Virus record (IMG/VR): IMGVR_UViG_3300029305_003176
From: a virus
Strand: one strand, 5' to 3'
Length of the DNA stretch: 64,000 nt
This document shows positions 384-40,255 of the stretch, piece by piece. The position numbers and the translations under genes were made by a program. The number at the start of each line of letters is the position of its first letter. Position 1 is the first letter of the stretch. The notes beneath the pieces are model-generated. The model saw only the letters and a list, made by a program, of their open reading frames with translations, made no database searches and was not told the origin of the DNA.

Positions 384-410
384 TTGACAGTTTTTTGAAA
401 CTGTTATAAT
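384..410 (+). promoter_or_regulatory. sigma70-like promoter (TTGACA, 15-nt spacer, TGnTATAAT extended -10)
   Basis: TTGACA at 384-389 and TG-T-TATAAT at 402-410. A strong RBS (AGGAGGT) precedes the ORF at 452. Confidence 0.5.
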
Positions 411-451: not shown

Positions 452-718
452 ATGGAAAAAACAATTGAAAATTTTATGAACTTTATGCAGGATTGTGTAG
501 ACAATGAAGAAAGAATAATAATAAGTGTAATATGTGGTAATTCGCATTTTACAGATTCATTTATACCAGAGAATAATAAGATAAAGAAACAAGAAATTTA
601 TATCACAGGAGATTGGGCTATATTAAACATTGAAGGAGACTATAATATTTCATATGACGAAATAGATAAATTGTATATTATTAGTCAGGGAGAGGTGAAA
701 TATCTCATAGGCAACTAA
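452..718 (+). CDS. hypothetical protein (88 aa)
   Basis: ORF with a strong upstream RBS (aggaggtatcctttaATG). Confidence 0.4.
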   Translation: MEKTIENFMNFMQDCVDNEERIIISVICGNSHFTDSFIPENNKIKKQEIYITGDWAILNIEGDYNISYDEIDKLYIISQGEVKYLIGN

Positions 719-745
719 TTAAAATTAAATGAAAGGAAATTAAAT

Positions 746-1873
746 ATGTTACATAGTTATCAAAAACCTTTAAATGGAGATGTAGGTGTGGTATTCGGCT
801 CATTCGCACCATTACATCAAGGTCATTTAGATTTAATAATGAGAGCCAAAAAAGAAAATTCTGGTGGTGTCATTGTAATTGTATGTGGTTACGATGGAGA
901 TAAAGGAGAGCCAGCTATGCCACATGCAAAGAGATATAGATATGTAAGAGAATTCTTTGCAGATGATGATTTAGTTGCAGTATACGCTATCAATGACACC
1001 GAGCTTGGTCTTGATAAATACCCAAACGGTTGGATTGGCTGGATGAAAGAATTTGAAAAGATTTATCGTACTGCAATTAGTCGTTCTTGTTATGAATGGT
1101 GTCAAAGGACTTGGTACGTAGGAGATGAAGTTTACTACAACGACCTTGTTAATATGTGGAATGAAAAGGCTGTTTTAGTAGATAGGTTAGCAGATAATCC
1201 AATTTCGGCAACAATGATTAGGCAGAATCCAATTAAGTATTGGGATAAGATTGCTCTTCCTTTTAAGAGAGTTTTTAGCACAAACATTCTTATTACAGGA
1301 ACGGCAAGCGAAGGTAAATCAACTATGGTTACTGACCTTGGAAAGTATTTCAATGCGCCACATAGTCATGAATGGGCAAGAGATTATATACAAGAAAGTT
1401 GCGTAAGCGATTGGGAACTTGATTGTGCAGACTTCCTTGCATTCCTTGAAGGTCAATATAATCATAACAAACAATTAATTAATTCGCCTGGCAATCATGG
1501 CATTTTCTTTGCAGACACAGATAGTTTAGTTACCAATATGTACTCTCAATATTATTCAAAAGATTCAAGCTGTGTATTAACAGAAGAAGAGTACGAAACA
1601 AAAATTAAGCCTGTGGCATATGAATATGCAAAGAAAAGTAGATGGGATAAAATTTTCTGTGTTGTACCTCACGGAACATTTGTTGATGATCACGAAAGAT
1701 TTATGGCTCATTCAGGAATGAAAGAGAGACAAGAGTTGTTTGAGATTTTAAAGCAAAGTCTTATAGATGTTGGCGATTGGGACAAGGTAATAATTCTAGA
1801 TGGCAATTATTATGAGAACTTTATGACAGTTGTAAATTATGTAAAGGAGATAGAGAAGAATGGAAAGAATTAA
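746..1873 (+). CDS. nadR: NadR-like bifunctional NMN adenylyltransferase / ribosylnicotinamide kinase (no HTH domain)
   Basis: N-terminal cytidylyltransferase motif VVFGSFAPLHQGHLDLIMRA. NMNAT-type segment ISATMIRQNPIKYWDKI. C-terminal P-loop kinase ITGTASEGKSTMVTDL plus WARDYI and FADTDSLVT. These are colinear with the two catalytic domains of E. coli and Haemophilus NadR. Confidence 0.85.
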   Translation: MLHSYQKPLNGDVGVVFGSFAPLHQGHLDLIMRAKKENSGGVIVIVCGYDGDKGEPAMPHAKRYRYVREFFADDDLVAVYAINDTELGLDKYPNGWIGWMKEFEKIYRTAISRSCYEWCQRTWYVGDEVYYNDLVNMWNEKAVLVDRLADNPISATMIRQNPIKYWDKIALPFKRVFSTNILITGTASEGKSTMVTDLGKYFNAPHSHEWARDYIQESCVSDWELDCADFLAFLEGQYNHNKQLINSPGNHGIFFADTDSLVTNMYSQYYSKDSSCVLTEEEYETKIKPVAYEYAKKSRWDKIFCVVPHGTFVDDHERFMAHSGMKERQELFEILKQSLIDVGDWDKVIILDGNYYENFMTVVNYVKEIEKNGKN

Positions 1874-2543
1874 AGATATTTTAACAAAGGAGTTTATGAG
1901 AGGATATTCAGCTTTTGATAAGTTTTTTATGGTATTAATGTTAGCGGTGCAGATTATTGTGTTTATTATTGCACCAGATTCATTGTTGGGAATTATCGCT
2001 GGCATTAGTGGAGTTATTTCGGTTGTGTTGTGCGCCAAAGGAAAGATTTCATTCTACTTCATTGGTTTTGTGCAGACTATCAGTTATTTATTTTTGGCTT
2101 GGCAAAATTGTTTTTATGGTGAAGTAATTGAAAACATTTTTTATTTAGTAACAATGATTATTGGAATTTTCATATGGAAAAGAAACTCAACAGTAGATGA
2201 CAATGGGTCTGCACATGTTGAAGCATTAAAGTTTACTCCTCTAATGTGGATATTATCAATTATTGGAACTGTAATTAGCACAATAGGAGTTGGTTATTGG
2301 TTAACTACAATTGGAAGTCATCAGGCATATACAGATGCAGCAACTAATGTTCTTGCTATATTTGCTCAGATATTAATGATTAAAAGATATAAAGAACAGT
2401 GGATTTGGTGGTTAATAATTGATGTATTGTGTATTAAGTTATGGTTTGTTGCCGGAAATTGGTCTATGGTAGCTATGTATGTTGCATGGACAATTAATTG
2501 TATATATGGTTGGTATAACTGGTCAAAATTAAATAAAGCTTAA
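1860..2543 (+). CDS. pnuC: PnuC-family nicotinamide riboside transporter
   Basis: 227-aa polytopic membrane protein. C-terminal ILMIKRYKEQWIWWLIIDVLCIKLWF...YGWYNW matches the PnuC signature ILMTRKYVENWLLWVIINV...YGWYAW. Overlaps and follows nadR. Confidence 0.8.
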   Translation: MERIKDILTKEFMRGYSAFDKFFMVLMLAVQIIVFIIAPDSLLGIIAGISGVISVVLCAKGKISFYFIGFVQTISYLFLAWQNCFYGEVIENIFYLVTMIIGIFIWKRNSTVDDNGSAHVEALKFTPLMWILSIIGTVISTIGVGYWLTTIGSHQAYTDAATNVLAIFAQILMIKRYKEQWIWWLIIDVLCIKLWFVAGNWSMVAMYVAWTINCIYGWYNWSKLNKA

Positions 2544-2556
2544 AGGGGTAAGTGAA

Positions 2557-2757
2557 ATGAGTAAAGCAAAAACAAAACGGTATTTAGTGTACAGGATAAC
2601 CACTTTTGACAATAAAGCTGCTTGTATTATTAATGTTGCACCACAACAAAAATGGACTTATCTAATATATGGAAATACAGCATATTTACATAGGAAAGGA
2701 ATTGGTTTGAATATTCCTAAAGAAGATTTTGAGAAGAATTGGAGCGTGATTGAATGA
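2557..2757 (+). CDS. hypothetical protein (66 aa)
   Basis: ORF only. Confidence 0.3.
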   Translation: MSKAKTKRYLVYRITTFDNKAACIINVAPQQKWTYLIYGNTAYLHRKGIGLNIPKEDFEKNWSVIE

Positions 2758-3053
2758 AAGAATTTATAGAAAAGCTGATTGGTAAATTGGAAGAAGCAAA
2801 AGGCAGAGCAAATCGTCATTATAATTATGGTGATGAAACAGCCTACCGTCACTCAATCGAAATCGTCAACGAACTTGCAGAGGGACACAATAATGATTTT
2901 TGTGAGTGGCGTAAAGGAAAAGGTCTCTATTTACATAGAGCATCTTGTGGAGAACAAGATTCTTATGACGACAGTTATAGATATTGTCCTTACTGTGGTA
3001 AAAAGATAAAGATTGTTGAGTTAGGAAAGGGGGGATTGATATTTTATGAGTGA
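2754..3053 (+). CDS. hypothetical zinc-ribbon protein (CxxC...CPYCGKK)
   Basis: ORF with paired Cys motifs. Confidence 0.35.
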   Translation: MKEFIEKLIGKLEEAKGRANRHYNYGDETAYRHSIEIVNELAEGHNNDFCEWRKGKGLYLHRASCGEQDSYDDSYRYCPYCGKKIKIVELGKGGLIFYE

Positions 3054-3471
3054 TTTTATAGAAAAGCTAATGGATGAATTAGAAAAAGCAAAGCGTATAG
3101 CTTACGAATATGAATGTTCTTCGCAGTATGAAGCAACTCAAAAAGTTGTAGTGGATTACGAAGACGTAGTTGAAATCATCAATAGGTACGCAGAGGAATA
3201 TAAACAAGATTTAAACAAAAATAAACAAGATTGGATCGCTTGTAGCGAAAGAATACCTGAACTTCACGAAGAAGTTTTAGTAACGCAGTTTTTTGATGAC
3301 AGTGAACATTATAATGTCACAAATGCTTCACTAATATCTACGCTTGATGGTAGTGGACGTGTCAGATGGTGCAGTTATGATCATTTTATTGATTATGTTA
3401 TAGCTTGGCAGCCATTACCACAACCATACAAGGAGGTGCAGGATGACAGAGTTTATGAGCGATTTAATTAA
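3046..3471 (+). CDS. hypothetical protein, DUF551-like C-terminus (WQPLPQPYK)
   Basis: The C-terminal motif resembles phage DUF551 proteins. Weak. Confidence 0.3.
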   Translation: MSDFIEKLMDELEKAKRIAYEYECSSQYEATQKVVVDYEDVVEIINRYAEEYKQDLNKNKQDWIACSERIPELHEEVLVTQFFDDSEHYNVTNASLISTLDGSGRVRWCSYDHFIDYVIAWQPLPQPYKEVQDDRVYERFN

Positions 3472-7090: not shown

Positions 7091-7285
7091 ATGATGGAAG
7101 ATAGAATTTTTAAAGAAGAAGATTTTACTAAAGACGAACTTATGCTATTAAAAATGGCTTTTAGGTTAGTGGAAACTGTAGTTGATGCACAGAGAACAAG
7201 TAACTATGATGTGTATTTAATAAATGAACTATACAACCTCAAAGAGACATTAGGAATATCAAGATTGGTAAATGATTTTTATTAG
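7091..7285 (+). CDS. hypothetical protein (64 aa)
   Basis: ORF with RBS aggagg. Confidence 0.3.
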   Translation: MMEDRIFKEEDFTKDELMLLKMAFRLVETVVDAQRTSNYDVYLINELYNLKETLGISRLVNDFY

Positions 7286-7327
7286 TAAATCAAACAACTC
7301 TTTTATTGATAGATTGGAGAAAATTAT

Positions 7328-14917: not shown

Positions 14918-15841
14918 ATGGTTTGGATTATTGTAAGTGCAATTTTATTTATCATTGCATTCATTGTCTTAGGTTTTAAAGACATATTATGTTTTGATGA
15001 TTGGGGCTTAAACCCTAAACAGCTTGGTGCTTTATTGACATTACTTATTATGATACCTGCTTTCGTAGCTAAGGTTCCTGCTAATTCTGTAGGTATTAAA
15101 TATAGTCCTTTTAATGGCACAAGTGAAACAACTTTAAACGAAGGATTTCATGCAAAGAATCCATTTGATAAAGTATATAAGATAAGCACAGAAGTGCAAA
15201 CGATGAAAGTGGAAAATCTCACAACTCAGACCGAAGATGCTCAATTTGTAACAACAATATTAGATGTTAAGTATAGAGTAAACCCTACAAATGCACATCT
15301 TATTTTTACGCAGTTTAGAACATTGGATAAAATGTCTGAAACATTAATTATACCCACTACCCAAAGAGTATTGGAGTTAATTACTACAAGGTATAATGTT
15401 ATGGATGTTCTTGGAGACAAGAGAAGTGTTATTTATTCAGAATTAGAATCAGAGTTAACAAAAGAGTTTGCTAAGTATGGCGTTGAGTTCTACTCGATTT
15501 CTATTACTGATATGGATGCTGGCGATGCAATTGAGAATGCAATTACGGCAGAGGCAGTAGCAAAGAAGCAAGTAGAAACTGCTGAACAAGAATTATTAAA
15601 GGCACAAACAGAGGCCAAGAAAGCGGCAGTTAGCGCACAAGCAGAACAAGATGCTGCAAAGATTAAAGCAGAAACTAAATTAATAGAAGCAGAAGCTCAA
15701 AAGAAAGCAAATGAGCTCTTACAACAATCATTAACAGAACTTATTCTTCAACAACAATGGATTAATAAGTGGAATGGCGAAATGCCTAAATTCTTTGGTG
15801 GAGATGGAGCAGGTTTAATGTTTAATATGGGAAGTGAATAA
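14918..15841 (+). CDS. SPFH/band-7 (prohibitin/HflK-C-like) membrane protein
   Basis: N-terminal transmembrane helices, an SPFH-like core, and a C-terminal Ala/Glu/Lys-rich coiled coil (AEQELLKAQTEAKKAAVSAQAEQDAAKIKAETKLIEAEAQKKA). Confidence 0.6.
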   Translation: MVWIIVSAILFIIAFIVLGFKDILCFDDWGLNPKQLGALLTLLIMIPAFVAKVPANSVGIKYSPFNGTSETTLNEGFHAKNPFDKVYKISTEVQTMKVENLTTQTEDAQFVTTILDVKYRVNPTNAHLIFTQFRTLDKMSETLIIPTTQRVLELITTRYNVMDVLGDKRSVIYSELESELTKEFAKYGVEFYSISITDMDAGDAIENAITAEAVAKKQVETAEQELLKAQTEAKKAAVSAQAEQDAAKIKAETKLIEAEAQKKANELLQQSLTELILQQQWINKWNGEMPKFFGGDGAGLMFNMGSE

Positions 15842-15843
15842 GA

Positions 15844-16149
15844 TTGAATAATTTATTTCAATTAAACTGTCCTAATTGTGCTGCACCCTTGAATAATGGT
15901 AAGTGTGACTATTGTGGAACAGAAACTGTAGGAGAGATTAGATTTGATGAATGCATAGCATTTAATTTAGTTGGCAGAGATGATGCAGGAAATAAATATG
16001 AAATACCCGTAAGTGGAAGAGTAAGTGATTTAACATTATCAACGGATCCAATGTCTGCTTTCGACTATAGTGGCAGAATACTTAAGACTTTTTTTAGAGG
16101 TTACAATGTAACATTTACATTCGAGGGTGCGATAAGAGAAAGAAATTAA
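15844..16149 (+). CDS. hypothetical zinc-ribbon protein (CPNC…CDYCG), overlaps the SPFH stop
   Basis: ORF translationally coupled to the SPFH gene. Confidence 0.35.
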   Translation: MNNLFQLNCPNCAAPLNNGKCDYCGTETVGEIRFDECIAFNLVGRDDAGNKYEIPVSGRVSDLTLSTDPMSAFDYSGRILKTFFRGYNVTFTFEGAIRERN

Positions 16150-16257
16150 TTATGAAGAAAGAGAGAAATATTTATTGAGTTCTCTTATTAAGAGAACAGT
16201 TGATGTCCGTGGGACGAAATTAAGGGATTGTGCTTACCTCGGTGAGGGGGTGAGTAT

Positions 16258-17439
16258 ATGAGTGAAAGAGCGTTAGCTCATATTGAAAGAATAGCTTGGG
16301 TTAAACCGATTGAAGGTGCAGATAATATTGAACTTATCGGTGTCTTAGGATGGGTATGTATAGCTAAGAAAGGTGAATTCAAACAAGGTGATTTCTGTAT
16401 CTATTTCGAAATTGACTCAAAGTTACCTGAAAAAGAATGGTCTGAATTTATGAGACCAAAACACTTCAAAGTAAAAACTATGAAGTTAGGAAAGTTTAAT
16501 GTTATTAGCCAGGGATTAGCTTTACCATTAAAAGCATTTAATTCAGAGGGCTGTATCTTCCCTGCATTAAATGACGGACTTCCAATTGAGGGTTCTGATG
16601 TTACAGAACTTCTTGGTGTTACATATTCTGTAGAAGAAGATAATATTCGTAAATCAAAGAATGGTGATCCGAATGCTAAGTATAAGTCTATGGCATCAAG
16701 ACATCAGAAGTTATTTAAGACTAAACCTTTTAGATGGTTAATGAAGAAAACTTGGGGAAGAAAGTTATTGTTTATTTTCTTTGGAAAGAAGAAAGATAAG
16801 CCAAAAGCATTTCCGGATTGGATTGTAAAAACTGATGAGACGAGAATTGAGAATGCTCCTTGGTATCTTGAAAGTGATAATAAATGGTTTAAGACAGAGA
16901 AATTAGATGGCACAAGTTGTACATATGCTGTGCAAAGGATAAAGAAAAATAGGTATGACTTTATTGTTTGTAGTAGAAATGTAAGACAAGCAGATAGAGA
17001 CCAGGTTTGTTATCATGATTCAAATATTTATTGGGAATTGGCAGATAAGTATAACATTAAAGAGATATTAATTAATTATGCAACAAGTAATAAATACGAT
17101 AGAGTTGTATTACAAGGAGAGGGTGTTGGTTCTGTACAAGGCAATCCATATAAATTGACAGAAAACGAACTTTTTATATTTAATCTTGTTATAAATGGTG
17201 TTCGTAAAGGAACTGATGAGATGGCAAGATTTTGCAATAAATACAAATTAAGACATGTACCTATCATTGATTCATTTTATACCTTACCTAAGACCATGGA
17301 AGAAATGAAGCTTGAAGCCGATGGCTATAGCTTAATTAATCCAAAGGTAAGAAGAGAAGGGTTCGTTTATAGAACTATTGATGGTCAACAAAGTTTTAAA
17401 AATGTATCAAGAGAATTTTTACTCAAACATAACTCCTAA
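16258..17439 (+). CDS. ATP-dependent RNA ligase (N-terminal OB-like domain + nucleotidyltransferase; Rnl5/DraRnl-like)
   Basis: Covalent nucleotidyltransferase motif I EKLDGTSCTY (KxDG) sits about 210 aa in. An N-terminal basic OB-like region precedes the NTase domain, as in Deinococcus/Naegleria-type RNA ligases. The gene flanks the tRNA array opposite the Pnk-HD gene. Confidence 0.5.
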   Translation: MSERALAHIERIAWVKPIEGADNIELIGVLGWVCIAKKGEFKQGDFCIYFEIDSKLPEKEWSEFMRPKHFKVKTMKLGKFNVISQGLALPLKAFNSEGCIFPALNDGLPIEGSDVTELLGVTYSVEEDNIRKSKNGDPNAKYKSMASRHQKLFKTKPFRWLMKKTWGRKLLFIFFGKKKDKPKAFPDWIVKTDETRIENAPWYLESDNKWFKTEKLDGTSCTYAVQRIKKNRYDFIVCSRNVRQADRDQVCYHDSNIYWELADKYNIKEILINYATSNKYDRVVLQGEGVGSVQGNPYKLTENELFIFNLVINGVRKGTDEMARFCNKYKLRHVPIIDSFYTLPKTMEEMKLEADGYSLINPKVRREGFVYRTIDGQQSFKNVSREFLLKHNS

Positions 17440-18324: not shown

Positions 18325-18360
18325 TAACTAATTAAAATTAAATAAAGGAGAAATAGAAAA

Positions 18361-19550: not shown

Positions 19551-20303
19551 ATGAGTAATAAGAATAAACAATATAACTTCACTGATTTAATAGGACAAAA
19601 ATTTGGGAAATTAACTGTTATAAAACGTGGAGAAGATAAAGTATCACCAAGCGGACAACATAAAGTTCGCTGGTGGTGCAAATGTGATTGTAGCAATCCA
19701 GAATTGATTTTAATATTGGGATACAACCTAAAGTCGGGACATACTAAATCTTGTGGGTATTTAAATTCTCAATTAGCTAGTATTAGAAATAAAAAGTACA
19801 ACACATATAACTTGTCTGGTGAATATGGAATAGGTTACACATTAAAAGGCGAAGAGTTTTATTTCGATTTAGAAGACTATGACAAAATTAAAGATTATTG
19901 TTGGAGAATAGACACAAAAGACGGATATGTAGTAACGACTTTTAAAGAAAAAATTTTATGTTTTCATAGAATTGTTATGGATGTAGATGATAGTGGTTTT
20001 GATGTAGACCATATTAGTCATATAAAACATGATAATAGAAAAATAAATCTCAGAGTTGTTAAGAGATGTCAAAACGCATCAAATAAAACTCCTTCGGATA
20101 ATAAAGTTGTTGGTGTAACTTTTGATAAAAGAAGTAATAAATGGAAAGCCAAAATAACGAAAAATTATAAAACTATTAATTTAGGTTTATATCAGAATTA
20201 TGAAGAAGCCGTCAAAGCAAGAAAACAAGCAGAAGAAAAATATTTTGGAGAGTTTTCTTATGACAATTCTATGAAACAAGCAGAGCAATACGCTCTAAAC
20301 TAA
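19551..20303 (+). CDS. HNH homing endonuclease with AP2 DNA-binding domain
   Basis: HNH motif VDHISHIKHDNRKINLRVV. AP2-like VVGVTFDKRSNKWKAKITKNYKTINLGLYQNYEEAVKARKQAEEKYFGEF. Confidence 0.7.
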   Translation: MSNKNKQYNFTDLIGQKFGKLTVIKRGEDKVSPSGQHKVRWWCKCDCSNPELILILGYNLKSGHTKSCGYLNSQLASIRNKKYNTYNLSGEYGIGYTLKGEEFYFDLEDYDKIKDYCWRIDTKDGYVVTTFKEKILCFHRIVMDVDDSGFDVDHISHIKHDNRKINLRVVKRCQNASNKTPSDNKVVGVTFDKRSNKWKAKITKNYKTINLGLYQNYEEAVKARKQAEEKYFGEFSYDNSMKQAEQYALN

Positions 20304-20335
20304 ACAAAATTATTTAGAAAACAAGGAGAGTAAAA

Positions 20336-30281: not shown

Positions 30282-30560
30282 GGAGTGATATAGTAACAGC
30301 AAAAGAACGTATTGAAAATGCAGGATATGAAGATGTAATTACCTTTAAAAATCCAGACTATGACGATGCTTTTATTGGTGTTACAACTAAAAATATAGCA
30401 GTATATGATTTTAATAAAATGGTTGAATGGTTAGTTAATAAAGAAGGAATGGATTACGAAGAAGCTATTGAATTTATTGATCGGAACGATAGTTTTTATT
30501 ATGGAGAAGGATATCCTCTTATAATCTATTCAATTAACTAAATAAAATTATTTTTATGTA

Positions 30561-30591: not shown

Positions 30592-30675
30592 ACTCGTAAT
30601 TTAACTAATTAAAATTATCAGAAAGGAAAAAGTTAGGTAGCTACTAAGGACATGTCCCTTTCTAAAAAAAACAAA

Positions 30676-31328: not shown

Positions 31329-31365
31329 AAATACAAACTAAATAAAATTATTTAAGGATGTTAAA

Positions 31366-31896
31366 ATGAAGAAAATGATAAACAGTAGAGAAGTGTTATA
31401 TTCGCCAGGTGCGAATGATGAATGTATAACTTTAGACTATGCAGTAAAACCCATTTTAAAATATATACCTAAAGATTGGGTAGTATGGTGCCCGTTTGAT
31501 AAAGAAGATAGTGAATTTGTTAAACAAATTAAAGCTAATGGTAACAAGATAATTTACTCACATATAGATTATGGACAAGATTTTTATACATATGAACCAG
31601 AAGAACATTGGGATTGTATTATCAGCAATCCTCCATTTACAAACAAACGTAAAATTTTTGAACGTGTATTGAGTTTTGGGAAGCTATTTGCTTTGATAGC
31701 ACCAAATACATGGTGGAATGATGCAGCACCTTATTATTTGTTTAAGGATAAAGATTTACAAATATTATCTTTTAATAAAAGAATGAAATTTTTTAATAAA
31801 GGTGTTGTTCAAAATAAAATCACTTTTATGAGTGCTTATTGGTGCTACAATTTCTTACCTAAACAAATTATATTTGAAGAATTAAAAATAGACTAA
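31366..31896 (+). CDS. small phage Dam-like N6-adenine DNA methyltransferase (NPPF motif)
   Basis: DCIISNPPFTNKRK is motif IV of N6-adenine MTases. At 176 aa, the size fits the compact phage Dam family. Confidence 0.5.
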   Translation: MKKMINSREVLYSPGANDECITLDYAVKPILKYIPKDWVVWCPFDKEDSEFVKQIKANGNKIIYSHIDYGQDFYTYEPEEHWDCIISNPPFTNKRKIFERVLSFGKLFALIAPNTWWNDAAPYYLFKDKDLQILSFNKRMKFFNKGVVQNKITFMSAYWCYNFLPKQIIFEELKID

Positions 31897-31918
31897 TCAA
31901 AATTATATGAGGTAAAAT

Positions 31919-32522: not shown

Positions 32523-33203
32523 ATGGGAAAGGTAATAATTCAAGATTATACATACAAATACCCAATACAAATGATAGGGACAGAAGCTGGAATGTGTTAT
32601 GGAAGTGATATCACTGACAAAGAAAAGAACTATAAACGTGGAATTGATTGTTTAGAAAATAACCATGGTCGTACATGGGAATTCCCTGATGTTTATATGA
32701 TTTTAGATGGATATTCTGCAAGAGTTTTTAGGGAGTGGTATACACATATAGGTGGAATGCCAACTCGTTTACAAGCTTCAACGAGATATATTAATTATCA
32801 AGATGGATTTGATTATTTTACACCACCTTCTATTGAAAACAATAGTTTGGCAAAATTCAAGTACGACACAATGATGAGAAATATTTCTAATACCCTTAAA
32901 GAATTAGAAGATATGGGCATTCCAAGAGAAGATTCTGCAAACGGCTTACCATTAGGAATGGAGTCAAAAGTTGTTTGCAAACATAACTTTAGAAATCTTG
33001 CAGATATGTCAAATCAAAGAGAATGTACAAGAGCGTATCACGAATATAGAAAGTTGTTTAAGGATATTTGTGTTGCCCTATCTGAGTATTCTGATGAGTG
33101 GAAATATCTTGTAGAAAATTATTTTATGCCTAAATGTGATAGATATGGCTATTGCACTGAAAAGAAATCGTGTGGCAGAAAACCTAAAAAGGAGGCGATT
33201 TAA
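32523..33203 (+). CDS. ThyX-like flavin-dependent thymidylate synthase (divergent: RHR motif replaced by THI)
   Basis: HGRTWEFPDVYMILDGYSARVFREWYTHIGGMPTRLQASTRY aligns to the ThyX core gHgSpfEH…isRa…RHR…SqRY. The S-x-RY part is conserved, but the RHR triad reads THI. Confidence 0.45.
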   Translation: MGKVIIQDYTYKYPIQMIGTEAGMCYGSDITDKEKNYKRGIDCLENNHGRTWEFPDVYMILDGYSARVFREWYTHIGGMPTRLQASTRYINYQDGFDYFTPPSIENNSLAKFKYDTMMRNISNTLKELEDMGIPREDSANGLPLGMESKVVCKHNFRNLADMSNQRECTRAYHEYRKLFKDICVALSEYSDEWKYLVENYFMPKCDRYGYCTEKKSCGRKPKKEAI

Positions 33204-34681: not shown

Positions 34682-35917
34682 ATGAAGGTTATAAAAAGAG
34701 ACGGAAGAAAAGTCAAATTTGACAAAGATAAGATCAAAATAGCCGTTCTTAAATCTTTTATAGATGTAGATGGAGAAGAAAGTACCTATGCAAAAGATAA
34801 AGCCAGAGAGATTGCTAATTATATTGAAAGTCTAGACAAAAATATGAGTGTTGAAGAAATACAAAATATAGTAGAAACGAAATTAATGGCAAGTAATCGT
34901 AAAGATGTTGCAAGAGCTTATATTATTTATCGCAATGACAGAAGCAGAATTAGAGAACAAAATAGTAAACTTATGATAGATATAGGAGAAAAACTTACAG
35001 CATCCAATGTTCAAAATCAAAATGCTAATATTGATGAAAAGTCTTTTGGTGGAAGAGTCGGAGAAGCAAGTGATACTGTCCTAAAAAAGTATGCTTTAGA
35101 CAACTGTATGTCTGATATGGCTCGTGAAAATCATCTCAATAATATGATTTATATTCATGATTTAAATAGTTATGCAGTAGGAATGCATAATTGTTTAAGT
35201 ATTCCATTTGATAAATTACTTGCAAATGGATTTAATACTAGACAAACAGATGTAAGACCTGCTAATAGTATTAACACTGCTTTTCAGTTGATAGCTGTTA
35301 TCTTTCAGTTACAAAGCTTACAACAATTCGGTGGCGTTTCTGCGACTCACTTAGATTGGACAATGGTTCCTTATGTAAGAAAAAGTTTTATTAAACATTA
35401 TCAAGATGGTATGAAGTATATTTGCAATGCAAATGCAGAGTTAGATATGACAAAAGATTGGTCAAAGGTTTCTATTGAAAATGATTTTTATAAAAATACT
35501 TATCCAAAAGCATATCAATATGCAATGGATATGACAATTAAGGAAACACAACAAGCAGTTGAGGGTATGTATCATAACCTCAATACATTACAATCGAGAA
35601 GTGGAAATCAGTTACCATTTACAAGTATTAATTATGGCACTTGTACATTACCTGAAGGACGTATGGTAATAAAAGCATTATTAGAAGGTTCTATTAAAGG
35701 TGTTGGTAAATTTCATAAAACATCAATATTTCCTTGTGGAATCTTTCAATGTATGAAAGGGGTAAATCGTAAGCCAGGAGAACCAAACTACGATTTGTTT
35801 AAATTGGCATTACAATCTACTGCACAAAGGTTATATCCTAATTATGCTAATGTGGATTGGAGTGGTAATGAAGGATACGATATTGATGATCCTAAGACAT
35901 ATTTTAGTACCATGGGT
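34682..35917 (+). CDS. nrdD: anaerobic ribonucleoside-triphosphate reductase NrdD, exon 1 (ATP-cone + N-terminal catalytic region)
   Basis: ATP-cone MKVIKRDGRKVKFDKDKI. Exon 1 ends …YFSTMG|; the track stop at 35918-35920 is the first intron codon. Confidence 0.65.
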
Positions 35918-36748
35918 TAAGAATACACCACAGCTCATATAAAACTCGGTGAACTCAGAAAACTGAGGTGTACATTACACGAACAAGGAATTACAGGAAA
36001 TGGTAATTAGGTAATGTGCTAACAGGGGAACGCAAGAATCCTGTGCGAAATTAATTGTTAATCTTACTCAAAAGGAGTAGGAATGGTAATACAAGGAAAA
36101 AGAATAAAAGAAAATATTGTTTATAGAAAAATATATGGAATATGGAAAAATATGAATGACAGATGCTATAAATCAAATTGTGACTGTTATTCGAATTATG
36201 GATCAGTTGGAATAACTGTTTGTGAAAGATGGAGAAACTTAGATAATTTCATAGAAGATGTTGACAAAATTGACGGTTTTGATTTGGAACTAATATTACA
36301 AGGAAAATTATCATTAGATAAAGATAAAAAACTTCATAATAATACAATGTATTGTTTAGAAAATTGTACATTTATATCTAAAAAAGAAAATAATAAATAT
36401 AAACCGCATCAACAAAAAGAAATAATAGGTATCTCTCCAGAAGACAAAATCTATGAATTTAATAATCAGAGTGAGTTTGCTAGATTACATAAATTAAGAC
36501 AAAGTAGTATTGGTGATTGTTTAAGTGGAAAATGCAAAACTCACAAAGGATGGAGATTTTATTATAAACAAGATTAACAATTATAATCGTTAAGAGACTA
36601 TCGAAAACATAGCATAAGAGAAATACTTATGTGAAGAAGCGAGTAGAGTACATTTAAGGTGAAATTCCTTATTTGGAAGTGCCGAGCATTTGTTATTTGG
36701 TAAAAGAATAATAAATGAAGATATAGTCCGGTAGGCAAAGGCCTATTG
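35918..36748 (+). mobile_element. group-I-type intron in nrdD (831 nt) carrying a homing-endonuclease ORF
   Basis: Splicing …ATG GGT|…|TGT AGA ACC restores the class III RNR motif MG-CRT in frame. The last exon-1 base is U and the last intron base is G (omegaG). T4 nrdD (sunY) carries a group I intron at a comparable position, which is known from the literature. Confidence 0.6.
36083..36577 (+). CDS. intron-encoded putative homing endonuclease (Cys-rich IYGIWKNMNDRCY…GITVCERW DNA-binding motif)
   Basis: Free-standing 164-aa ORF with its own RBS (aaggagtagg) inside the intron. The N-terminal motif is typical of phage HNH/AP2-associated endonucleases. Confidence 0.45.
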   Translation: MVIQGKRIKENIVYRKIYGIWKNMNDRCYKSNCDCYSNYGSVGITVCERWRNLDNFIEDVDKIDGFDLELILQGKLSLDKDKKLHNNTMYCLENCTFISKKENNKYKPHQQKEIIGISPEDKIYEFNNQSEFARLHKLRQSSIGDCLSGKCKTHKGWRFYYKQD

Positions 36749-37744
36749 TGTAGAACCGCAAATGGATATGATATTAATGGCTTTGGTCAGTTAAAAGATG
36801 GTCGAGGTAATATTTGTCCGGTAACAATTATTATGCCAACATTAGCTATGAAGGCTAGAGAATTAGAAGTAGATGCAATAATGGAATCCAACAATGGGGA
36901 ACCAGAAGCAGATATTGATGTTGTTGAAACATTTATAAATATACTAGATGACAAAATTCATGAAGCAAAAGATATGCTACTTGAAAGGTTTGAATGGATT
37001 TGTAGTCAATCATCAGATTCGGCAAAGTTTATGTATGAAAATGGTGTTATGGAAGGATACGATGGTAAAGATATTCATTCTGCATTAAAACATGGAACAC
37101 TTGCAATTGGTCAATTAGGACTTGCAGAAACCCTTCAAATTCTTATTGGTTGTGACCATACAGAAGAAAAAGGAATGGAGCTTGCAAAGAAAATAGAGCA
37201 ATTATTCAAAGATAGATGTGTAGAGTTTAAAGAGGAATATAAATTGAATTTTGGAGTGTATTTCACGCCAGCCGAGAATTTATGTTTTACAGCTATGAAG
37301 AAGTTCAAGGAAGAGTATGGAGAGATATTAAATGTATCTGATAAGAAATTCTTTACCAATTCAATGCATGTACCCGTATGGAAGAATATGTCGCCATTTG
37401 AAAAGATTGATATTGAATCTCAATTAACAGGCTATAGTTCAGCAGGTTGTATTACTTATGTAGAATTACAGTCTTCAGTTAAGAATAATATTGAGGCTTT
37501 GGAGACAATTGTAAATTATGCAATGGATAAAGATATACCATATTTTGCAATTAACGTTCCTAATGATATGTGCATGAGTTGTGGTTACTGTGATGATATA
37601 AATAACGCTTGTCCTATGTGTGGTGGACAAGAAATAAGAAGACTAAGAAGAGTTACGGGATATCTCACAGGAGACTATACAACTGCATTTAATGAAGGAA
37701 AACAACAAGAAGTTGAATTAAGAGTAAAACATTTAAAGGAGTAG
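36749..37744 (+). CDS. nrdD: NrdD exon 2 (C-terminal zinc ribbon CMSCGYC…CPMCGG and glycyl-radical motif RRVTGYLTG)
   Basis: Glycyl radical site RVTGY and a Cys4 zinc ribbon, both characteristic of NrdD C-termini. The track ORF 36746..37744 starts at a TTG within the intron 3' end. Confidence 0.65.
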   Translation, partial: CRTANGYDINGFGQLKDGRGNICPVTIIMPTLAMKARELEVDAIMESNNGEPEADIDVVETFINILDDKIHEAKDMLLERFEWICSQSSDSAKFMYENGVMEGYDGKDIHSALKHGTLAIGQLGLAETLQILIGCDHTEEKGMELAKKIEQLFKDRCVEFKEEYKLNFGVYFTPAENLCFTAMKKFKEEYGEILNVSDKKFFTNSMHVPVWKNMSPFEKIDIESQLTGYSSAGCITYVELQSSVKNNIEALETIVNYAMDKDIPYFAINVPNDMCMSCGYCDDINNACPMCGGQEIRRLRRVTGYLTGDYTTAFNEGKQQEVELRVKHLKE

Positions 37745-38965: not shown

Positions 38966-40255
38966 TTGGGAAAAGATTTAAAAGGAAAAGAATTGGGAGA
39001 TGGTATTTCACAAAGGGCCGATGGAAGTTATATGGCTCGTTTTACAGACAGGTTTGGCAAAAGAAAAAGTTTTTATTCTGTTAACTTAAAAGAAGTGAAG
39101 GCTAAATTAGCCGATGCTATTTATGAGAACAAAAATAGAATGAATTTATCTGATGACACAATCATTTTAGATGACTGGTTTGAAAAATGGCTTAACATTC
39201 ACAAGTTTAATACAATCAGATTAAACACAAAACGTCACTACATACACGTATATAAAAAACATATTTCACCTAAATTAGGCAAGAGAAAGTTATGTGACAT
39301 TAATCAATTAATGATAAGAGAAGTGATTAAAGACTTAGTTGAAAATGGGTATCAATTTGAAACTCAGAACAAAGTTAAAATCTTATTAGTTGATATGTTT
39401 GACAAAGCAATCATTGATGATTTTGCTCGCAAGAATCCTGCTCGTGGTATTAAGCTTATTAGAGACGAGAGTGAAATAAAAAATATTCGTGTACTAACTG
39501 TAGAAGAACAACAAGAGTTTTTTGATTGTTGTAAGGGAACATTTTATGATAATTTGTTTACAGTCGCAATCAACACAGGGTTACGCCCCGGAGAAGTGTG
39601 CGCACTAAAATGGGAAGACATTGATTTTGATAAGATGGAGATTTCAGTAGAAAGAACCCTACTATATCAAAAGCTAGAAGGAGATGAACAAAAAACATTT
39701 CACTTTGAATTTCCTAAAACAAAACAAAGTAAGCGTAAAGTTCCTATGAATAAAACTTGTGCCATTGCCTTAAAAAAACAAAAATTGCAATCCAATATAG
39801 TTAAAGCTAAATCTGTGAAATTCTCATCTGTATCCGATGAATTTAAAGAATTATTATTTACAACAAAGTTTGGAACGCCAATTAATTCAGTTGTATTAAA
39901 TGATGCAATAAGAAGAATTGTCGATGAAATCAATCTGATTAAAGACCCAATTGAAGCGTTTGAAGAATTTTCTGCACATTGCTTTAGACATACTTTTGCA
40001 ACAAGATGTTTCGAAAGTGGTATTCAACCAAAGACGGTACAATCCTATTTAGGACACGCTTCTTTGAAAATGACAATGGATTTATACACTCATGTTCTTG
40101 ATATTAAAAAGCAAGAAGAAATGGATAAATTAGCAGAAACTATGGATAAAATATCAAATGTATCTGAGGATGAATTAGAAGATTTAGTAGATAAAAGATT
40201 TAAAGAAGTTGCAGATAAAAATAGCAATATCATTCCATTATTCGGAGTGGTCTAA
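38966..40255 (+). CDS. int: tyrosine site-specific integrase
   Basis: C-terminal catalytic motifs HCFRHTFATR…LGHASLKMTMDLYTHV (R-H-R-Y). N-terminal arm-binding-type domain. Confidence 0.85.
   Translation: MGKDLKGKELGDGISQRADGSYMARFTDRFGKRKSFYSVNLKEVKAKLADAIYENKNRMNLSDDTIILDDWFEKWLNIHKFNTIRLNTKRHYIHVYKKHISPKLGKRKLCDINQLMIREVIKDLVENGYQFETQNKVKILLVDMFDKAIIDDFARKNPARGIKLIRDESEIKNIRVLTVEEQQEFFDCCKGTFYDNLFTVAINTGLRPGEVCALKWEDIDFDKMEISVERTLLYQKLEGDEQKTFHFEFPKTKQSKRKVPMNKTCAIALKKQKLQSNIVKAKSVKFSSVSDEFKELLFTTKFGTPINSVVLNDAIRRIVDEINLIKDPIEAFEEFSAHCFRHTFATRCFESGIQPKTVQSYLGHASLKMTMDLYTHVLDIKKQEEMDKLAETMDKISNVSEDELEDLVDKRFKEVADKNSNIIPLFGVV

Follow-up and report, generated by a model that had tools for sequence, protein, structure and literature searches.

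A probable NARP3-type nicotinamide riboside-to-NAD+ module encoded by a large uncultivated gut phage

Does a phage that carries a nadR gene followed by a pnuC gene thereby possess a route of its own from nicotinamide riboside (NR) to nicotinamide adenine dinucleotide (NAD+), and is such a route directed against NAD+-depleting host defences or at some other need? This question is raised by positions 746-2543 of a stretch of 64,000 nucleotides from the virus record IMGVR_UViG_3300029305_003176 (IMG/VR), which as a whole is referred to here as the window. A preliminary description had assigned NadR and PnuC to this interval, and both open reading frames (ORFs) were found exactly there on the plus strand and were backed by profile as well as structure matches. 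Gene identity, intact motifs, coupling of the two genes, their conservation as a pair and their phage context are all observed in the present data. Taking these findings together with the properties of characterized homologues, we consider it probable that the pair constitutes a NARP3-type module that converts NR to NAD+ and sustains NAD+ during infection, including under attack by NADases.

The NadR protein aligned with the model TIGR01526 (nadR_NMN_Atrans) over profile positions 3-320 of 325 (202.9 bits, E 7.5e-60) and matched phrog_3462, annotated as 'nicotinamide-nucleotide adenylyltransferase' (E 4.7e-67). Among solved structures, NadR from Lactococcus lactis (PDB 6GYE) constituted the best match (E 1.5e-59, residues 10-353), followed by an enterobacterial-type NadR (8x7f, E 4.2e-22), Bas30_86 (9x6f, E 7.7e-22) and the enzyme from Haemophilus influenzae (1LW7); the alignments with 6GYE and 9x6f are full-length. 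The L. lactis protein (6GYE/6GYF/6GZO) shares about 36% identity with the phage protein over residues 10-353, likewise lacks a helix-turn-helix (HTH) domain and aligns in its Walker A, Walker B and lid segments. It has been proven biochemically to convert NR to NAD+ and forms a cellular NR route together with PnuC (PMC7221760), but is a cellular housekeeping enzyme and not phage-borne.

The features that the preliminary description had recognized in NadR, i.e., an HxGH motif, a nicotinamide mononucleotide (NMN) adenylyltransferase (NMNAT) core and a C-terminal P-loop ribosylnicotinamide kinase (RNK) domain, are indeed present, the first as G18-S-F-A-P-L-H24-Q-G26-H27 and the latter two as matches to PF01467 and PF13521. 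They are accompanied by the second nucleotidyltransferase motif, ISxTxxR (I153-S-A-T-M-I-R159), and, following the definitions established for the L. lactis enzyme (PMC7221760), by a kinase Walker A motif (G185-T-A-S-E-G-K191-S-T), a Walker B motif (D257-T-D259) and a lid (V313-D-D-H-E-R318). In an alignment of 139 sequences, comprising 120 metagenome protein clusters (78-91% identity), 18 loci from genome bins (36-71%) and the window itself, the residues H24, G26, H27, R159, G185, G190, K191, D257, D259, D314, D315 and R318 were each conserved in at least 98% of the sequences, and both active sites of NadR are therefore under purifying selection. The model for trifunctional NadR (NF005988) aligned with the phage protein from profile position 64 onward while positions 1-63 remained unmatched, and therefore the HTH domain is absent; the N-terminus extends only 12 residues ahead of the NMNAT motif. 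This sets the protein apart from the trifunctional enterobacterial NadR (8x7f), which possesses homologous NMNAT and RNK domains and, at its N-terminus, an additional HTH repressor domain with TGTTTA-N6-TAAACA as its binding site.

PnuC scored far above the cut-off of PF04973 (150 bits versus 27.3, E 8.5e-44), passed that of the TIGR01528 equivalog three-fold (145.3 bits versus 42.45), matched phrog_1880 (E 7.5e-48) and aligned essentially over its whole length (residues 10-226) with PnuC from Neisseria mucosa (PDB 4QTN, E 4.8e-36). To judge by their E-values, the matches of NadR and PnuC both lie far outside the range of chance. The extra N-terminal transmembrane (TM) helix is present. With regard to the motifs named in the preliminary description, YGWYxW occurs as Y216-G-W-Y-N-W221, and the gate Trp/Tyr residues W106, W221 and Y216 are all in place, while WxWxxN is not found literally. 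The sequence in TM6 is W181-I-W-W184-L-I-I-D188, which agrees with the ligand-binding motif WxxW(x)3D/N of the Pnu family (PMC5749112), for which facilitated diffusion combined with metabolic trapping is established (PMC5749112).

The junction of the two genes (Table 1), with its overlap of 14 nt and a Shine-Dalgarno (SD) sequence of its own, AAGGAG, located 10 nt upstream of the pnuC start, exhibits an arrangement typical of translational coupling, and according to their coordinates overlapping or abutting nadR/pnuC junctions also occur in relatives. No terminator was detected after pnuC, where the next ORF follows 14 nt downstream, and the pair forms part of an extended array of small ORFs, all in the same orientation, that precedes the replication genes. 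The nearest credible candidate for a promoter of the pair sits in a 139-nt gap upstream of an 88-aa ORF that precedes nadR; promoter-like matches in the AT-rich window are no commoner than in shuffled sequences. Its spacer contains the palindrome ACAGTTT-tttg-AAACTGT, which occurs once in the window, as does the full 27-mer. As a site for a known NAD regulator the palindrome (ACAGTTT-N4-AAACTGT) was rejected, fitting neither the published NiaR operators (type I core TGT-N4-ACA, type II ACA-N5-TGT) nor the NadR box given above. The 88-aa ORF, for which no Pfam or PHROG match was obtained, was detected in near-identical contigs (L001-L006) only and not in more distant relatives, and it is uncertain whether it forms part of the module.

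The leader box ahead of nadR, ACTAAtTAAAATTAttt, also precedes several other phage genes just 5' of their ribosome-binding sites (RBSs), and this common occurrence suggests that nadR uses the phage's own expression signals. Further upstream, the box ACTAATTAAAATTATTTT (355-372) is common to promoter-like repeats at 11114-11320 and 30537. Against an expectation of 1.9, the window contains 12 copies of the recurrent intergenic box ACTAAtTAAAATTATTT, which either directly precede TATTGACA -35 boxes or lie 5-15 nt ahead of RBSs; the box may represent an UP-like or a leader/processing element of the phage.

The genome that hosts the pair belongs to a large uncultivated gut phage with a siphovirus-like gene set. 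That the two genes are phage-encoded, as had been stated at the outset, is borne out by the presence of genes for DNA polymerase, tail proteins, tape-measure protein, Dit, endolysin and holin in the window, which identify the source as a large siphovirus-like phage, and by GC and GC3 (GC at third codon positions) values of nadR and pnuC that match those of the remaining phage genes. Host DNA or misassembly as the source of the pair was ruled out by the uniform composition, the flanking phage genes and the same context in six independent contigs. A search of assembly collections revealed an identical NadR on 15 contigs, six of which were retrieved (L001-L006); the longest is a 137,242-bp JGI metagenome contig, in which the window starts at about 72.4 kb. 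The plus strand of the window encodes a DNA polymerase of the Pol III-alpha type, a helicase resembling DnaB and a Toprim protein. An RNA ligase, a PNK/HD protein and an RNA-binding protein of Ro-like type are encoded on the same strand beside five tRNA genes, as are a split NrdD, ThyX (32523-33203), guanylate kinase, NT5C nucleotidase and dUTPase. Genes for an amidase endolysin, holin, Dit, two tape-measure-like giants and other tail proteins are located on the minus strand.

Nucleotide relatives among deposited phages were not found by megablast and blastn of the region. The amidase, LysM and SleB-like hydrolase sequences as well as the Tn916-type integrase point to a Firmicutes host, and among species-representative genomes the most similar relatives (57-71% identity) are contigs assigned to metagenome-assembled genomes (MAGs) of Clostridia, Eubacteriales, Lachnospiraceae and Christensenellaceae that were recovered from faecal samples of goat, rabbit and other origin. 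The host is probably a gut anaerobe of the class Clostridia, MAG binning being weak as host evidence.

Import of NR by PnuC followed by its two-step conversion through NadR, as envisaged in the preliminary description, fits the domains, motif conservation, adjacency and predicted coupling of the two genes and has been shown for the homologous Bas30 pair. The accompanying designation as a distinct third route is biochemically right but not new. It was proposed by Osterman et al. (2024, preprint), who described phage NadR genes as usually residing in an operon with PnuC and possibly forming another NAD+ reconstitution pathway, and the pair Bas30_86/87 was given the name NARP3 by Yan et al. (Sci Adv, 12 August 2026; PMC13464706). 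In the latter paper, the transporter is reported to bind NR, the enzyme to convert NR to NMN and further to NAD+, and crystal structures to have been solved; Bas30_86 and Bas30_87 together, but neither of them alone, restored NAD+/NADH as well as plating of T7 and lambda in the face of Sir2-HerA and DSR1. The same paper counts 124 NARP3 operons, mostly from phages of Enterobacteriaceae, and states that pnuC and nadR are unlinked in E. coli (PMC13464706).

All elements of the NARP3 architecture, that is, an HTH-less enzyme uniting NMNAT and RNK domains, an adjacent co-oriented PnuC and a location in a phage genome, were found for the present pair. As in NARP3 from Escherichia phage TrudiRoth and T5-like Demerecviridae, two phage genes follow each other in the order nadR, pnuC, the transporter is an 8-TM protein resembling that of N. 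mucosa, and the predicted conversion leads from NR via NMN to NAD+. By homology, the pair would therefore rank as a distant member of the NARP3 kind. The T5-like Salmonella phage bastian (L039), whose NadR is 100% identical to the sequence of the solved NARP3 enzyme, also encodes subunits A and B of an NAD-dependent DNA ligase and a putative Sir2-like protein (1294-3403, 11082-11933), so that phages with NARP3 are consumers of NAD+ in their own right. Among deposited phages, the closest homologues occur in the Lak megaphages (Prevotella phages, MK250015-29), in which both proteins are about 40-42% identical and the genes are adjacent in the same order, whereas the genomes measure 540-550 kb, the recorded host is Prevotella sp. 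and the pair is unannotated. The systems NARP1 (Adps and Namat) and NARP2 (Nampt and Nmnat) described by Osterman et al. (2024) likewise rebuild NAD+ in phages to escape NAD+-depleting defence, but use ADP-ribose (ADPR) and nicotinamide or nicotinamide and PRPP (phosphoribosyl pyrophosphate) as substrates, lack a transporter and employ unrelated enzyme families; genes for NARP1 or NARP2 were not seen in the annotation of the window.

The substrate, both enzyme activities, the timing of expression and the counter-defence effect are predicted from these homologues. PnuC in the host membrane would let external NR diffuse into the cell, where the C-terminal kinase of NadR would phosphorylate it to NMN, so that NR would be trapped and its uptake pulled. 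The N-terminal adenylyltransferase would then join NMN and the AMP moiety of ATP to yield NAD+. Transcription of both genes would take place along with that of the early or middle genes around them, their translation would be coupled, and because NadR lacks an HTH domain the supply of NAD+ would be independent of host regulation. The NAD+ pool would be held up, so that the phage could replicate while Sir2, TIR/Thoeris or DSR NADases drain NAD+.

To place the pair among its relatives, we compared loci from genome bins, metagenome contigs and deposited phages. Adjacency and order of nadR and pnuC are kept in 15 of the 18 genome-bin loci (33-72% identity) and likewise in T5-like phages and the Lak megaphages. 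At the nucleotide level, related phages resemble the present one only within the nadR-pnuC block, the exception being one relative (L035) in which two more downstream ORFs align, and the flanking genes vary even between relatives with 79-89% identical NadR. In two further relatives (L015, 5103-5792; L016, 4480-5145) NadR is 66-70% identical, PnuC only 34-37%, and the nucleotide similarity does not extend beyond the nadR/pnuC junction, suggesting that the transporter gene has been replaced.

Two relatives with 79-89% identical NadR (L035, 1-715, 6937-7967 and 9879-10334; L036, 14256-14927) contain genes of interest near the nadR-pnuC module, namely an NAD-dependent DNA ligase, YqeY plus a metallophosphatase directly upstream, Macro and Tad3. 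In one relative, the type I Thoeris inhibitor Tad3 (PF25185, E 2e-33) is encoded 5 kb downstream in the same co-directional array, in another a Macro-domain gene directly follows pnuC, and in a close relative (NadR 89% identical) an NAD-dependent DNA ligase is encoded about 8 kb upstream of nadR. Macro-domain genes have recently been sought in NARP1 operons as a candidate phosphatase extending NARP1. With the relatives' proteins as queries, neither an NAD-dependent ligase nor a Macro domain nor Tad3 was found in the window or in the 10 kb upstream of it. Relatives lacking the module were sought in metagenome contigs with two queries, an MrpR-like recombinase encoded upstream and a DUF551 protein encoded downstream, which gave 282 and 64 pattern matches, none of them confirmed by tblastn, while the PNK/HD protein as query in viral contigs yielded seven loci without nadR or pnuC within 10 kb, at 33-45% identity too distant to interpret.

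Among 50,697 deposited phage records, tblastn revealed NadR-like genes in 427-792 and PnuC in 736. The matching phages include those of Vibrio, Bacillus, Lactobacillus and Prevotella (Lak), and Enterococcus phages belong to the leading genera in the NadR tallies only. We tentatively put forward as a possibility that NARP3-type modules, instead of being peculiar to phages of Enterobacteriaceae, form a mobile two-gene cassette distributed across phages of anaerobic gut Firmicutes and Bacteroidota, of enterobacteria, Vibrio and Bacillus, with a transporter that is exchangeable in the present clade, and travelling in NAD/ADP-ribose conflict islands together with Tad3 and Macro genes. In a stronger version of this proposal, the promoter palindrome could act as an operator through which a regulator of host or phage controls expression.

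Several observations weigh against a NARP3-type function that includes counter-defence. Identity to the tested Bas30 pair amounts to only 28% for NadR and 27% for PnuC, so that the function in this phage is assigned by homology at about 28% identity, and the assays of the NARP3 paper did not use the module in its native phage (PMC13464706). Residues reported there as needed according to mutagenesis are K10/F11, S37, E80/P84/G89, F110, E230 and D275 in Bas30_86 and N45, Q94 and N180 in Bas30_87 (PMC13464706); in the alignment, K10 corresponds to S19, S37 to G48 and E230 to N241 of the present NadR, and N45 to G51, Q94 to M99 and N180 to D188 of the present PnuC. Furthermore, the TIGR01526 score of NadR stays below the equivalog cut-off of 341.15, the protein being, to judge from its alignment, a divergent member of this family. 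Early or middle expression fits the position in the array, the timing being a guess from that position and the consensus promoter. Finally, the window and the 10 kb preceding it yielded neither an NADase-defence context nor Tad3, Macro or another anti-defence gene.

Of the residues listed for Bas30_86, only F11 (F20), G89 (G95) and D275 (D301) are kept, and E80 (D84) and F110 (Y124) are replaced conservatively; most of the residues that the paper highlights by docking differ in the present pair as well. Most of the mutated Bas30 residues also differ in NadR from L. lactis and PnuC from N. mucosa and therefore mark the T5-like branch and not the pathway. Other differences to NARP3 concern the nucleotidyltransferase motif, which is TxGH in Bas30_86 and HxGH here, and the hosts, which are Enterobacteriaceae there and probably a Gram-positive gut anaerobe here. 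A role in counter-defence is favoured by the defence-specific phenotype of the tested homologue and by the Tad3 or Macro genes near the module in relatives.

The same chemistry from NR to NAD+ might serve as a general auxiliary metabolic module, selected for the NAD(P) demand of infection or by an NAD+-poor host and not by NADase defence. The consumer could be an NAD-dependent DNA ligase of the phage, the NAD(P)H-requiring ThyX or the central metabolism of a host that is a niacin-auxotrophic anaerobe. ThyX and the large nucleotide-metabolism block in the window agree with this explanation, as do the NAD-dependent DNA ligase near the module in the relative with 89% identical NadR, the ligase A/B and Sir2-like protein of the archetypal NARP3 T5-like phage and the wide retention of the module in the phage clade (at least 120 protein clusters at 78% identity or more). 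Moreover, pnuC and nadR clusters in gut jumbo phages have already been interpreted as auxiliary metabolism (2024 Microbiome paper, PMC11662467). On the other hand, the 64-kb window and the 10 kb preceding it revealed neither an NAD-dependent ligase nor any further protein that would consume NAD+ directly, the varying flanks give the module the character of an accessory cassette instead of that of a core replication gene, and the tested homologue confers a defence-specific phenotype. We regard a purely metabolic role as rather unlikely, and the two readings can hold together.

Much less probable is a function in lysogenic conversion, in which the pair would be a moron of a presumed temperate phage, transcribed from its own host-type promoter and providing NR salvage to an NAD-auxotrophic lysogen. 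A Tn916-type integrase is encoded in the window, two tyrosine recombinases just upstream of nadR, and a strong consensus promoter with an operator-like palindrome precedes the pair; both families belong to the PHROGs category 'moron, auxiliary metabolic gene and host takeover', and among characterized NadR proteins the nearest is a housekeeping enzyme, that of L. lactis, which together with PnuC makes up the cellular NR route. Against such a role, the pair is not set off by an isolating terminator but embedded in the co-directional small-ORF array that runs into the replication genes, the nadR leader box is the same as that of other phage genes, and an integrated copy with bacterial flanks was not seen, the MAG-bin relatives having the appearance of phage contigs.

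A different specificity, with a transporter for another pyridine or B-vitamin nucleoside (nicotinic acid riboside, thiamine) or only a single active NadR domain, could be read from D188 at the end of the PnuC motif (as in the thiamine transporter PnuT; N in N. mucosa PnuC), from M99 in place of Q99 of N. mucosa and from the low TIGR01526 score, but is highly improbable in view of the clear TIGR01528 match, of Pnu specificity following the adjacent kinase (PMC5749112), which here is an RNK domain and not a thiamine kinase, and of the strong conservation of both NadR active sites.

The doubt left by the NARP3-type reading falls mainly to a metabolic role of the same chemistry outside defence.

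Other features of the window are collected in Table 1 together with those of the module. The RNA-repair-like cluster extends over 10202-17439. The PNK/HD gene is followed by a gap that appears to be non-coding, in which tandem 62-nt promoter-like repeats occur at 11135-11196 and 11227-11288 (TTGACA-17-TGaTAcAAT and TGaTAaGAT), each followed by a short hairpin (GTTCTTGAGAGAGAAC, GTTCCTGAAAAGGAAC). SPFH genes and tRNAs also adjoin NadR-PnuC in T5-like phages. NrdD is split into 34682-35920 (profile positions 4-381) and 36746-37744 (406-714), and the insert of about 825 bp holds a 164-aa ORF with an I-HmuI NUMOD-like endonuclease domain (36083-36577) and is probably a mobile intron. Three tyrosine recombinases, i.e., the Tn916-type integrase and two proteins encoded upstream of nadR (L001, 6355-9567, ahead of the window start), suggest a temperate or plasmid-like lifestyle or an invertible/mobile cassette; the latter two, a Phage_integrase gene and the MrpR-like recombinase, flank a DndB-like gene just upstream of nadR, and positions 16-312 of the window represent the C-terminal end of the last gene. 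The presence of two tape-measure-like genes in a single tail module is unusual.

Table 1. Coordinates of the nadR-pnuC module, its putative expression signals and further features of the window
Feature	Position	Strand	Basis or remark
ACTAAtTAAAATTATTT copies	355-372, 714-731, 11114-11131, 11213-11230, 11303-11320, 18327-18344	+	recurrent intergenic box
ACTAAtTAAAATTATTT copies, continued	20299-20316, 30537-30554, 30604-30621, 31337-31354, 31892-31909	+	recurrent intergenic box
ACTAAtTAAAATTATTT copy, continued	7269-7286	-	recurrent intergenic box
Candidate sigma-70/sigma-A promoter, TTGACA, 15 nt, TGtTATAAT (perfect extended -10)	384-410	+	sequence only
88-aa ORF, first after candidate promoter, immediately 5' of nadR	452-718	+	ORF
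Recurrent leader-box copy ACTAATTAAAATTAAATG, 3 mismatches	714-731	+	15 nt before nadR ATG, then RBS-like aaaggaaa
nadR-like gene, 375 aa, bifunctional NMN adenylyltransferase and ribosylnicotinamide kinase by homology, without HTH	746-1873	+	ORF, profile matches
NMNAT (cytidylyltransferase-like) domain, aa 16-160	791-1225	+	PF01467 CTP_transf_like, E 5.7e-9
Ribosylnicotinamide kinase P-loop domain, aa 181-343	1286-1774	+	PF13521 AAA_28, E 2.9e-19
nadR/pnuC junction, 14-nt overlap, SD AAGGAG (1844-1849) inside nadR end, pnuC ATG at 1860	1844-1873	+	sequence
pnuC gene, 227 aa, Pnu-family nicotinamide riboside facilitator by homology	1860-2543	+	ORF, profile matches
PNK/HD protein	10202-11113	+	RNA-repair-like cluster
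Ro/TROVE-like RNA-binding protein, DUF2828 and DUF7788	12218-13723	+	phrog_850
Five tRNA genes, one with aberrant two-base anticodon call	13789-14854	+	
SPFH/Band-7 protein	14918-15841		
RNA ligase	16258-17439	+	
HNH_3 and AP2-domain ORF, homing-endonuclease type, between replication genes	19551-20303		
Tn916-type tyrosine integrase	38966-40255	+	at strand-switch point
Tape-measure-family ORF, 1428 aa, also LysM/endolysin-like segment	49937-54223	-	
Tape-measure-family ORF, 1470 aa	55525-59937	-	

The present pair constitutes a new example of a known system and no new mechanism. It probably extends NARP3, a pathway validated only weeks earlier, from T5-like enterobacterial phages to a large and abundant clade of uncultivated phages from the herbivore gut, with Clostridia as their probable hosts, and the numbers of deposited phage records with NadR-like and PnuC sequences lie far above the 124 published operons. 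Such a wide spread bears on the generality of NAD+-centred conflict in anaerobic gut communities, in which the availability of NR could shape the outcome of infection.

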